Shown here: positions 1-55,103 of the stretch, one piece after another
Layout of the letters: every line of letters starts with the position of its first letter
How positions within the stretch are numbered: the first letter of the stretch is position 1
Assembly: GCA_020833025.1 (NCBI GenBank)
Contig: JAJHRB010000002.1
Coordinates: 1 to 64,000 of the forward strand
Direction: 5' to 3'
DNA length: 64,000 nt
Source: Thermoproteaceae archaeon
GTDB lineage: Archaea; Thermoproteota; Thermoprotei; Thermoproteales; Thermoproteaceae
Notes under the pieces: model-generated
Seen by the model: only the letters and a program-made list of their open reading frames with translations
Databases searched by the model: none
What the model was told of the DNA's origin: nothing
Made by a program: the position numbers and the translations under genes

Positions 1-310
1 CTCCACGCCGTGAACGCACACTCCCTCTACGAGACTCTTAGGCAATACGGCAGACTCGACGGGGAGCGTCTAAAGGCGGCCGCGCCTCACTGTTCCCTCG
101 ACTCCGGTATCACGACCGCAACTCGACCGCCTCGCGCCGCTCGTCGAGAAAACTTCGCGGACGCATAGTCGCCCACTATGACTTTGATCTCTCAAGTGCC
201 TCGGCGTCGACAAAGGCAGTGGCGGCGTGAAGGGTCTCCGCGCCTGCCTCCCCGAGGCATTTGATTAGGGGTCCGCAGAGGCGGAGCCCGAGCTCCGCGC
301 TGACCATTTA
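1..310 (-). pseudogene. Degenerate ORF remnant, weakly PLD/restriction-endonuclease-like
   Basis: Minus strand reads MVSAELGLRLCGPLIKCLGEAGAETLHAATAFVDAEAL, then frameshift to IKVIVGDY; stops follow; runs off the window edge. Confidence 0.25.
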
Positions 311-370
311 CGCTCTCTGGCGCGGCTTATAGCGCATTGGAGCAGTCGGGGAGCGGGCCCGGGAGTAAGG

Positions 371-378
371 CTTAAAAA
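371..378 (+). promoter_or_regulatory. TATA box for tRNA-Gln fragment
   Basis: CTTAAAAA about 24 nt upstream of 402, the same motif and spacing as before intact tRNA-Arg at 18215. Confidence 0.75.
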
Positions 379-401
379 GGCAGCGGCCGGGAGTAAACGG
401 C

Positions 402-493
402 CGCCCGGGCACGACCCGGCCATGGATGCGGGGCTCTGGAGCCGGCGGCGGGGAGACCCCGTGGCCCGGGTTCGAATCCCGGCCGGGCTACCA
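402..493 (+). tRNA. tRNA-Gln(CTG) 3' fragment (positions 22-76) with 37/38 intron 440-455 and a non-tRNA leader; probable split-tRNA half
   Basis: GGATG-CGGGG-CT-CTG-G, 16-nt BHB intron, A-CCCCG, T-arm CCGGGTTCGAATCCCGG, CCGGGCT-A-CCA; positions 8-15 read GCACGACC instead of a TAGTCTAG-like motif. Confidence 0.8.
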
Positions 494-5303: not shown

Positions 5304-5905
5304 AGCCCTTCCCCGGCCGCGCGCTCCTCGGCAACGTATAGGACTCCCAGCTCCCTCAGCTGGCTGTAGAGCTTGTTCACCGCCCTCCCCACGTCCGTCT
5401 CGGACTTGGCCCCCGTGCATACGATCTTTCCCGAGCCGAAGATAAGCATGACGACCTTCGGCGATGACATCCTGTATATCAGCCCGGGAAACTGCTCGGG
5501 CTCGTACATCGCATTGTCGAGCATTAGCACTGCCTGCTCCAGGTCGACCTCGACATGCAGATTGCCGCTGGCAACTATGTTCTGGACCTGGACCTCGGGC
5601 TCCGACGGCACGTCAGCGCCGTGCTCCCTAAGCAGCTGAGTCAGAGCCCTGACCGCGTTTTTGAGGTCCTCCTCGTTCTTGGCGCCGGTGCACACAATCT
5701 TTCCTGTCCTGAATATCAGCGCGGACACTCTGGGCTTGGTAAGCCGCAGGATTAGGCCAGGGAACTGGTCAGGGTTATACTCTGCCGTTAGGAGACGCTC
5801 CGCCAGTCTCTCGAGATTGAGCTCGACGCCGAGGTTGATTGTCGCAACGATGTTCTCAATGCGGTAGGAGGGCCCCCTGTCATAGCGTTGAGGCGCGCCG
5901 GCCAC
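5300..5905 (-). CDS. tbp: TATA-box-binding protein
   Basis: Two repeats IENIVAT...YNPDQFPGLI / VQNIVAS...YEPEQFPGLI. Confidence 0.97.
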   Translation of the reverse strand: MAGAPQRYDRGPSYRIENIVATINLGVELNLERLAERLLTAEYNPDQFPGLILRLTKPRVSALIFRTGKIVCTGAKNEEDLKNAVRALTQLLREHGADVPSEPEVQVQNIVASGNLHVEVDLEQAVLMLDNAMYEPEQFPGLIYRMSSPKVVMLIFGSGKIVCTGAKSETDVGRAVNKLYSQLRELGVLYVAEERAAGEGL

Positions 5906-6399: not shown

Positions 6400-7039
6400 C
6401 AACGCCCTCCTCTCTGATCTCAACAATATCTCTGGAACAGAGTATTTCCAGCGCTGTTCTCACGACTCTCGCGTCTGCCCTCGCGAGACGTGACACGTCC
6501 TCCACGAATCTTATAATGCCGACGCTCGGGTACGCGGCCAGGTAGTTCAGCACGGTGCTCAGGAGAGACTTGGCGCTACTCTCGTCAACTCTCGCCTCGC
6601 TGGCGAGGAGAGAGACCAGCACGCCCCGCCCGTCCCGCGCTGCCGCGCCGGCGTCCGGCCTCTGCTCCTGCCGCCCGGCAGGGCTGGCCGCCACCTCTCC
6701 CGCCCGCTCCTGGGGCGCGCGCTGGGTCTGCACCGCCGGGCCCTCCCGCGCGGTCTCCGGCCTGGCCCCTGCCGCCGGCTCCGGCCTCTGCCGCTCCTGC
6801 CCGCCGCCCGCGCCGATGAACTCGCTGAGCCTTCGCGCCTTGGCGCGCGCCCTCCTCGCAGCCGCAGGCCTCCTCTCGATATTGCCTGCAATTGTCTCCG
6901 CCAGCTGCAGCACGACGCTGCCGAAGACGGCCTCAGGTCCCGAGGCTGCGCAGCCCTGCCTAATGCACACGATGGTTCTCGCGAGAACGCCGAGAGCGTC
7001 CTGCTTTATCCTGCCCGACAAGTACAGCTTGTAGAGCAC
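6356..7039 (-). CDS. Hypothetical protein with C-terminal winged-helix-like domain
   Basis: Two helical domains joined by a low-complexity linker. Confidence 0.65.
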   Translation of the reverse strand: MLYKLYLSGRIKQDALGVLARTIVCIRQGCAASGPEAVFGSVVLQLAETIAGNIERRPAAARRARAKARRLSEFIGAGGGQERQRPEPAAGARPETAREGPAVQTQRAPQERAGEVAASPAGRQEQRPDAGAAARDGRGVLVSLLASEARVDESSAKSLLSTVLNYLAAYPSVGIIRFVEDVSRLARADARVVRTALEILCSRDIVEIREEGVVNLKRPVRPEGLLL

Positions 7040-28928: not shown

Positions 28929-28993
28929 TGGAGGGGCCGGGGGTCCCGCGGGCGCGCTCCCCCGCCGCTCTATCCAGGCTGAGCTACGGGCCC
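28929..28993 (-). tRNA. tRNA-Arg-like 5' fragment (positions 1-30) plus 33-nt trailer ending CCA; probable split-tRNA half
   Basis: GGGCCCGTAGCTCAGCCTGGATAGAGCGGCGG then non-tRNA sequence; no anticodon or T-arm; TATA CTTAATAA at 29014-29021. Confidence 0.8.
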
Positions 28994-44349: not shown

Positions 44350-44407
44350 GCGGGGGTGCCCGAGCCAGGTCAAAGGGGCGGGCGGGTGGTTAATGGGCGC
44401 CTCCCGC
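44350..44407 (+). tRNA. Split tRNA-Leu 5' half (positions 1-21, 44350-44373) with trailer
   Basis: GCGGGGGTGCCCGAGCCAGGTCAA then AGGGGCGGGCGGGTGGTTAATGGGCGC; no anticodon or T-arm follows. Confidence 0.9.
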
Positions 44408-45010
44408 TACTCTCCACTTACTATATTATCTCCCGGGTTTCAAAGCGCTTGTACATATCCCCTGGCCGCCGCGGTAAACGCCAGTAGCCCCCTGGAGCGG
44501 CATACCCGTCTTATCTCGCGCCGCCACGAGAGTCCCCTCGTAGGGGCATCCGGGGGTGCACCACTCGGGCGGCGGCGTGTATTCGACCCTCTGCACACGC
44601 CGAGCCTCTGCGGAAGCTCGAAGACTAAGGCGGCCCTGAGCCACTTCGGCTCATGCCTCTATCCGCCGCGCTCATACCCTCATCCGCCTCGCCGCGTTCT
44701 CGACTCTCTCGACGACCGCTCCGGCCGCCTCCGCCAGGCAGATAAGCATTCCGTAACTCCCTGCTAGGTAGCAAGCCAGAGGGACGCTGCGGCCAGAACC
44801 CAAGGGCTCCCACCCGCGACAACCCTCCTGTTCCCCTCAAGGGATATCCAAAGCCCTCCTCGCCGCGGAGGCCGGGATAAGCGCCGTGTTTGTGATGGAC
44901 GCATGGCATGAAAATTACCTGTCGTTGGCGAAACGTTATCCTGTAAGTACGCGGGCGTCTCGACGGGTTACAGCGCTAGCATCTTCACCATAACGCTGAG
45001 GGAGCAGAAG

Positions 45011-48482: not shown

Positions 48483-48568
48483 AACCACCCGCCTGCCCGC
48501 CCAGAGGGGCAGGGTTTAGGTCCCTGTGGCGTAGGCCTGCGTGGGTTCAAATCCCACCCCCCGCACCA
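48483..48568 (+). tRNA. Split tRNA-Leu(TAG) 3' half (positions 22-76 from 48505) with leader
   Basis: AGGGG-CAGGG-TT-TAG-GT-CCCTG, long variable arm, T-arm, CCCCCGC-A-CCA; leader AACCACCCGCCTGCCC complements 44376-44391. Confidence 0.9.
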
Positions 48569-53494: not shown

Positions 53495-53580
53495 TGGTGC
53501 GGGGGGTGGGATTTGAACCCACGCAGGCCTACGCCACAGGGACCTGAACCCTGCCCCTCTGGGCGGGTGGTGGCGGGCGC
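53495..53580 (-). tRNA. Split tRNA-Leu(CAG) 3' half (positions 22-76 from 53558) with leader
   Basis: Identical to the TAG half except anticodon; leader GCGCCCGCCACCACCCGCCCAG; TATA CTTAAAAA at 53605-53612. Confidence 0.9.
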
Positions 53581-53847
53581 TGTCGTGCCCTCGACGGGCT
53601 TGTATTTTTAAGCTTTCACATGACCGCCAGCGCCATCCCTCCCCCACCTTGCCGCGCTTCAGAGTGTCTGTGCCAGGTGGCAGGCGCGGGCTGGCCGGGC
53701 TGCCCTCCCGCCAGCGACGGCATTTGCGCGCACAGCGGCACAGCACAAAAACAGCAGAAAGGCGCGGGGCGCGCCTCTGCGCGGGGATTGCGGTCAGTGA
53801 GCGACCCTGCCGCCTCCGCGGTACCTAACGCAGCTTACCGCGTCGCT

Positions 53848-54640: not shown

Positions 54641-55103
54641 TTTCTTTCAGCCTACGTCACCCCGGCATGCTGTGTGAGACCTCTCATCGTACACCGTATT
54701 CTCAATCGCTATTACTGAGCCATGCGGTCCTCACCGTCATTGCGCTCGGGAGTAACGCCGATGGGCGGCACCTCTCAATATTTTGCGGCCAACAAACAGG
54801 CAGGGGAATTACTACGCGTGGATAGAGACGCCACACCATCGTGGCTGGTGCTATCTCCCTGCCAGGGTCCGCCCCCGGCGATTCTCTAAACAAAAGACGA
54901 GAAATCAAGCTCCCGAGTCAGCACCTGGTGTACGCGGTGTCGGCAACTGAAATTGCAGGCAGGAGGCACTCTCAAGCCCTGGAGGGCAAGAATAGGGGCA
55001 GCAGGCAGCACCCGCCACCCGCCCCTTTGACCTGGCTCGGGCACCCCCGCCTTGCCTTCACTGCAGCACTTGCACATAAACTTTTCGCCCCTGTTGTGCG
55101 GTC

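Follow-up and report, generated by a model that had tools for sequence, protein, structure and literature searches.

Positions 364-493 of the window, the whole 64,000-nt stretch of DNA that was analysed, carry a predicted promoter, a short leader and most of a tRNA-Gln(CUG) gene that is itself interrupted by a cis intron. The features at this end of the window are as follows.

1-399 (+), downstream portion of the 1,147-nt spacer that separates the tRNA halves, from the L058 alignment described below; the remainder of the spacer and the 5′ half with its promoter lie beyond window position 1
364-379 (+), predicted BRE/TATA-type archaeal promoter of the 3′ half, with TTAAAAA at 372-378
400-423 (+), 24-nt leader of the 3′ half, GCCGCCCGGGCACGACCCGGCCAT, assigned as intron-derived from its pairing and its homology to introns of relatives
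424-439 (+), tRNA-Gln positions 22-37, with G22 at base 424
440-455 (+; 441-456 is equivalent), 16-nt cis intron at the canonical 37/38 site, whose removal restores the mature arm
456-493 (+), tRNA-Gln positions 38-76 including the encoded CCA, from the sequence and the joined product

The first exon segment holds the 3′ strand of the D-stem, G26 and the 5′ strand of the anticodon stem, with the anticodon CUG at 436-438. The second holds the 3′ strand of the anticodon stem, a 4-nt variable loop and the T arm, and it closes at 493 with the acceptor strand CCGGGCU, the discriminator A and the encoded CCA. From position 22 through CCA the exons are flawless, and removal of the 37/38 intron gives the exact mature anticodon arm of relatives. 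A possible bulge-helix-bulge (BHB) register for this intron has a CUCU:GGGG central helix, bulges GG↓A and AG↓A (arrows mark splice sites) and an inner stem GCC/GGC; a constrained fold gives a 3-nt 5′ bulge and an inner hairpin, with a slipped register preferred on the 3′ side. The 22 nt that precede G22 (CGCCCGGGCACGACCCGGCCAT) lack U8, A14 and G15 and cannot form a D-stem, so that no cloverleaf can form in cis. An earlier sequence-only reading had described 371-493 in just these terms, as the 3′ part of a tRNA-Gln(CUG) broken at 21/22, with positions 22-76, a 37/38 intron, a TATA at 371 and an upstream segment devoid of the conserved D-arm bases, and the sequence bears it out. Neither ARAGORN nor the Rfam tRNA model (at the gathering threshold and at E<=10) reports a tRNA at 371-493, as expected for half a gene.

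The window corresponds to contig C89 of a 1.56-Mb assembly (G000; 126 contigs, 62.6% GC, 94% complete). The host genome belongs to the same GTDB genus as 17 Pyrobaculum-like genomes, with Pyrobaculum spp. as its closest named matches, and the family B DNA polymerase (PolB) encoded in the window is ~75% identical to Pyrobaculum PolB. The organism is present in the hot-spring metagenomes of three studies.

The box cTTAAAAAgg at 371-380 is followed by a spacer of ~20 nt and then by the leader, which ends ...CCC-GGCC-AT (415-423). Both the motif and its spacing of 21-23 nt match the promoters predicted from sequence at the intact tRNA genes of this genome, and transcription of the 3′ half would be expected to start at ~400-402, the first base of the segment that pairs with the partner RNA. 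The promoter, GAGTAAGGCTTAAAAAGGCAGCG, is nearly identical to that of an intact tRNA-Leu on C100; the matching segments are window 364-386 and G000:C100:10812-10850, GAGTAA(A)GGCTTAAAAAG(G)CAGCG. This likeness hints at promoter copying among tRNA loci. An imperfect 20-nt direct repeat surrounds the TATA box (352-371, AGCGGGCCCGGGAGTAAGGC; 382-401, AGCGGCCGGGAGTAAACGGC), and since its second copy varies in a related strain, the repeat is probably not a functional RNA. In a divergent strain, 397-485 is free of changes, as against 14 substitutions and 2 indels in 125-396 (~5% flank divergence). No RNA run is listed among the public sequencing runs that contain the locus, and contigs assembled from the DNA runs end within the T arm and neither link nor separate the two halves.

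A whole-genome scan with the pattern AGCCCGG...GG[C/T]CAA found two promoter-bearing Gln-type 5′ halves. The first, at C14:10839(+), reads AGCCCGGTCGTCTAGCGGTCAA and continues into the trailer GGGGCCAGTAGGCGGCCCGGGCGGC..., and the second, at C28:34809(-), reads AGCCCGGTCGTCTAGCGGCCAA and continues into the trailer GGGGCCACGGTGAGCGGTCTGGGCGGCT...; their exons are a single D-loop base apart. A TATA box lies 21-23 nt before the C14 exon, as at intact tRNA genes. The C14 copy is the half that had been foreseen from the window alone, of the type AGCCCGG...GGCCAA with a complementary trailer, and it lies beyond window position 1, in keeping with its reported absence from the window. It had been placed "elsewhere" in the genome, which is right in that it is off the window, but the distance is just 1.15 kb, upstream and on the same strand, across a 332-nt assembly gap that hid it. 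A 119-kb JGI metagenome contig (L058), identical in sequence, bridges C14 and C89; read in the direction of the window, this contig has A1 at 5825, the end of C14 at 6238, window base 1 at 6571 and G22 at 6994. The 5′ half therefore begins 1,169 nt 5′ of G22, and A21 and G22 are 1,147 nt apart, colinear and on one strand, with 332 nt of the spacer absent from the MAG between C14 and C89. Two scans of metagenomes were also made: with exact 40-mers there were no matches, and with degenerate 22-mers there was a single match, in a protein-coding region, which was judged to be due to chance.

The spacer contains one further feature.

Between the halves (-, antisense and convergent), ORF for a 122-aa coiled-coil protein, a member of a repeated family, with a separate AT-rich promoter

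This ORF matches no Pfam or PHROG family above threshold. C14 stops ~330 nt past its 5′ half, within this repeated-family gene, which accounts for the contig break. Members of the small coiled-coil gene family, at 66-99% DNA identity, lie at C14:11020-11252, C47:22394-22781, C19:39476-39870, C61:72861-73279 and C102:1-225, and such repeats interrupt the assembly, as in the C14/C89 gap behind which the 5′ half was hidden. The ORF was considered as the mark of a mobile element that splits tRNA genes, and this idea was dropped because its paralogues are not consistently found beside other tRNA halves. At the end of both Gln 5′-half trailers there is a conserved hairpin and, after it, CCGGGCU (C14:10885-10920, C28:34723-34760), which could pair with the 5′ end of the same half as a 7-bp acceptor-like stem. 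This might shield the half, or it might be what is left of a T arm and acceptor strand.

The second 5′ half has its own counterpart. A genome scan for 3′ ends (T arm plus acceptor) found only two of Gln type in the assembly, that of the window and one on C19(-), which is the 3′ half of tRNA-Gln(UUG) with two further cis introns. The C19 half shares with the window half its promoter box, the distance of that box and the leader design, and the C28 trailer CGGTCTGGGCGGCT is the exact complement of its leader (a 14-nt zipper). The sequence is free of a partner for 34.7 kb after the C28 5′ half and for 39 kb before the C19 3′ half, which puts the UUG halves at least 73 kb apart if they are colinear. 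Because no partner lies within these distances, the UUG halves must work in trans, with the same architecture as the CUG pair. Their joined product is recognized by ARAGORN as a 76-nt tRNA-Gln(ttg), and it is letter-identical to the intact gene of a relative. The sequence-only reading had raised the question of another Gln-CTG gene, and the answer is that the 94%-complete assembly has no intact Gln gene of any kind, only two Gln-type 5′ ends and two 3′ ends, none of them contiguous; an intact copy could still lie in the missing part.

Evidence that the C14 and window halves belong together comes from the complementarity of their flanks. The C14 trailer GCCCGGGCGGC is the exact complement of window 400-410 (GCCGCCCGGGC), an 11-nt Watson-Crick run; the pairing had been predicted at 403-417 and actually lies further upstream. 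A run of this length was reached by 41 of 5000 shuffles of the leader, and the 14-nt run between C28 and C19 by none of 5000. Crossed, non-cognate pairs give runs of 7-8 nt, as against 11 and 14 nt in the cognate pairs. Moreover, the CUG and UUG pairs differ by two compensatory changes, in which C>U in the trailer is accompanied by G>A in the leader. The trailer-leader duplex was present in every cofold and in the cloverleaf-constrained fold.

Next to this duplex, the ends of the two RNAs can be arranged as a splice junction. Leader bases 415-417 (CCC) form an outer helix, h′, with GGG; 418-421 (GGCC) form a 4-bp central helix with GGUC in the D-loop of the 5′ half; and A422 and U423 sit in the 3′ splice bulge, so that the junction is flanked by AA↓G and AU↓G. 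A fold in which the cloverleaf was enforced and the two RNAs were joined by a 4-A linker contained the 11-bp zipper, GGG:CCC and GGUC:GGCC, with both splice sites in small bulges. In this model, four D-loop and stem bases, U13-C16, lie opposite the 3′ bulge, and the register is one base off the textbook 3-nt bulges. The predicted 21/22 junction is thus a relaxed motif rather than a strict one; of the perfect BHB that had been proposed for it, the 4-bp helix GGUC:GGCC is retained, but the motif is relaxed and the register slips by one base. Unconstrained minimum-free-energy folds always contained the trailer-leader duplex and the acceptor stem, with the GC-rich body misfolded and neither cloverleaf nor motif formed. 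The cis gene of a relative, G041, was equally misfolded under these conditions, and unconstrained folds are therefore unfit to judge the junction motif. Given that the 21/22 cis introns of relatives share the same local junction geometry, the splicing enzymes of this clade presumably cope with relaxed geometry.

When the C14 5′ exon is joined in silico to 424-439 and 456-493, the product is a 76-nt tRNA-Gln(ctg) that ARAGORN accepts, and a single D-loop base sets it apart from the mature Gln(CUG) of relatives. The CUG pair has several features of split archaeal tRNA genes, namely a predicted promoter for each half, complementary flanks, a relaxed BHB and a canonical joined tRNA. Taken together, these data suggest that window 364-493 is probably an independently promoted 3′-half gene of a split tRNA-Gln(CUG).

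The likely origin of the split gene is seen in its relatives. Intact tRNA-Gln genes were found at the best match in all 12 of the same-genus genomes that were inspected, out of 17, and in most Pyrobaculum and Thermoproteus relatives (loci L020-L050) the gene has a 16-50-nt cis intron at exactly 21/22, in the frame ...GGCC AA↓N GGG ... CCC GGCY NN↓GGAUG. In G041 this intron is 50 nt and forms a long hairpin. The trailers of the split genes align to its 5′ arm and the leaders to its 3′ arm, such that the two halves together cover the G041 gene, with the break in the apical loop of its intron (alignment A1). The insertion site, the junction frame and the arms are the same or homologous; the difference is that the intron of relatives is contained within one gene, whereas here the hairpin is open at its tip, with a promoter and 1.1 kb of other DNA inside. 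This led to the proposal that the split gene arose from an ordinary gene whose long 21/22 hairpin intron was broken at the apical loop. The leader had alternatively been suspected to be a decayed 5′ exon of a once intact gene (13 of 22 bases match), a view that was rejected because of its homology to the 3′ arm of the relatives' 21/22 intron; the same alignment indicates that the leader is intron-derived. Within 1.5 kb of the relatives' Gln genes there is no counterpart of the genes that flank the CUG locus, and the only syntenic flanking gene is one upstream of the C28 5′ half.

The enzymes for such a pathway are encoded in the genome, with EndA alpha on C61 (TIGR00324, 103 bits), the EndA beta subunit on C29 (PDB 2zyz, P. 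aerophilum PAE0789, E 2e-44) and RtcB on C60. RtcB lies in a 961-aa open frame (C60:4614-7331) in which the Pfam match is interrupted by ~455 aa, probably an intein. In the proposed pathway, transcription from ~400-402 would give an RNA with the 24-nt leader and tRNA positions 22-76, and a 5′-half RNA with positions 1-21 and a ~60-nt trailer would come from a separate TATA box on the same strand, 1.17 kb further upstream (C14:10839). The two RNAs would anneal through the acceptor stem, the D-stem and the 11-bp trailer-leader duplex. This would rebuild the junction, with D-loop GGUC on leader GGCC, flanks AA↓G and AU↓G and an outer GGG:CCC. The crenarchaeal (alpha-beta)2 splicing endonuclease could then cleave after A21 and before G22, RtcB would ligate the exons, and the 16-nt 37/38 intron would be excised in cis by the same enzymes.

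With the partner on the same strand and just 1.15 kb upstream, the CUG copy could conceivably contain a long cis intron. Both halves and the 1,147-nt spacer would then be co-transcribed as one gene, the TATA box at 372-378 would be unused or secondary, and long-range pairing of trailer and leader would form the same motif for removal of a giant intron in cis. The colinearity of the halves is consistent with this model, as is the absence of a clear oligo-T terminator past the 5′-half trailer, which would permit read-through into a long precursor. The pairing and the junction would be identical under either reading. Inside the spacer, however, lies a convergent protein gene that has an AT-rich promoter of its own, and the 3′ half carries a consensus tRNA-type promoter at a distance that would place the start at the first paired base. 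Conservation in the divergent strain starts at 397 and not upstream, and the paralogous UUG 3′ half, which has the same promoter and leader design, cannot be spliced in cis. In addition, the adjacent halves of Aeropyrum pernix tRNA-Asp have been described as separate transcripts (PMC3218864). A giant cis intron is therefore an unlikely explanation, and separate transcription of the two halves is probable, as suggested by the tRNA-like promoter, the conservation from 397 and the UUG 3′ half of like design that is not cis.

A very improbable variant of split-gene expression holds that the C14 5′ half is a decaying relic and that the C28 5′ half serves both 3′ halves. Shared tRNA halves occur in Caldivirga and Nanoarchaeum, the two 5′ exons are nearly the same, and with two G-U pairs tolerated, 11 bp can form between the C28 trailer and the window leader. 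Against this, the C14 half has a perfect 5′ exon preceded by a well-placed TATA box, and its match to the leader is the better one, all of it Watson-Crick; the compensatory differences also argue for selection on each pair in its own right. That the locus is a pseudogene, a dead and functionless fragment of a tRNA-Gln gene, would fit the missing cis cloverleaf and the silence of the tRNA finders but is scarcely credible for a sequence with a flawless exon, an encoded CCA, an intact promoter, a matching partner, no second Gln(CUG) gene in the assembly and no change in 397-485 in a strain with ~5% flank divergence, where degenerate exons, a missing partner or a loss of constraint would mark a pseudogene and none is seen.

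The split Gln(CUG) gene, with its halves probably expressed apart, has company in this genome, where at least 11 tRNAs appear from their sequences to be split: Gln (two), Leu (four), Asn, Trp, Arg-UCU and Lys (two). The halves are spread over C13, C20, C28, C31, C34, C46, C74, C81, C100 and C102 as well as the window. Trailer-leader runs are 13 nt for Asn, 14 nt for Trp and 13 nt for Arg-UCU, with matched acceptor strands; the two Lys pairs have runs of only 9 nt, which are not the top-ranked match, and rest mainly on the adjacency of the halves. For Leu there are four 3′ halves and two 5′ halves, broken at the same 21/22 site as Gln, and several of them lie in the window, together with a candidate for Arg(UCU).

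44350-44410 (+), 55036-55050 (-), 48494-48565 (+) and 53498-53590 (-), Leu halves, two 5′ and two 3′
28993 (-), promoter-bearing 5′ half, GGGCCCGTAGCTCAGCCTGGATAGAGCGGCGG↓..., candidate partner of Arg(UCU)

The Leu 5′ halves of the window read GCGGGGGTGCCCGAGCCAGGTCAAA↓ followed by the trailer GGGGCGGGCGGGTGG, and the leaders of the Leu 3′ halves (UAG and CAG), ...CCACCCGCC...CCCAGA↓GGGG, are complementary to this trailer. Over 13 nt, the trailer at 28993 is complementary to the leader of the Arg(UCU) 3′ half, at G000:C13:7280-7388. Extra 3′ portions of tRNA-Ser also lie beside unrelated sequence (C12:11340-11396, C17:72-130, C78:4326-4381); these look like attachment-site duplications from integrated elements rather than split genes.

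A broader reading, narrowly favoured, is that the CUG locus is a tRNA gene caught in the act of splitting. A 1.1-kb stretch of DNA would have opened the tip of its 21/22 hairpin, within which a tRNA-type promoter would have arisen, with cis- and trans-splicing perhaps both operating, while the UUG copy would be fully dispersed and the host would have the largest set of split tRNAs, at least 11 compared with a published maximum of six. Split tRNA genes are rare and are central to the debate over whether halves are the original form of tRNAs or the outcome of later breakage. Here, three states of one gene can be lined up, namely a short 21/22 cis intron in sister species, a colinear pair 1.15 kb apart and a dispersed pair. 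This series supports late splitting inside an existing intron, by steps that can be tested. There is also a practical consequence, in that standard tRNA finders miss both Gln tRNAs, which affects the annotation and the completeness scores of such MAGs.

A 2014 review counted 29 split-tRNA pieces with 12 anticodons in seven genomes (PMC4033280), and Chan et al. found no split tRNA in five Pyrobaculum genomes and a maximum of six per genome (2011, PMC3218864), a maximum that at least 11 split tRNAs would exceed. A full-text literature search found no report of split tRNAs in Pyrobaculum-like genomes. Within the same order, Thermoproteales, Fujishima et al. in 2009 reportedly described split and tri-split tRNAs in Caldivirga maquilingensis. 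The leaders and trailers of that species resemble introns at the same positions in related species, in line with the general observation of a likeness between split-tRNA flanks and introns in relatives (PMC4033280, PMC4390854); its split tRNAs are Gly, Glu and Ala, whereas the present case is Gln. Nanoarchaeum equitans does have a split tRNA-Gln(UUG), with a break at 32/33 and halves far apart (PMC3218864). The two systems are alike in that tRNA-Gln is made from two gene pieces with complementary flanks, but N. equitans is a DPANN symbiont with the break at 32/33, and the organism studied here is a Pyrobaculum-like archaeon in which both Gln isoacceptors are split at 21/22. A parallel in adjacency and junction is the split tRNA-Asp(GUC) of Aeropyrum pernix and Thermosphaera aggregans, reported by Chan, Cozen and Lowe (2011, PMC3218864), where adjacent halves are taken to give separate transcripts that are joined at a BHB. 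In those Desulfurococcales the break is at 37/38 and the halves are ~160 nt apart; in the Gln(CUG) gene of this member of the Thermoproteaceae, the break is in the D-loop at 21/22, the halves are separated by 1,147 nt with an antisense protein gene between them, and there is an extra cis intron. The Gln(CUG) locus thus adds a previously unreported case to a rare but known archaeal split-tRNA architecture.
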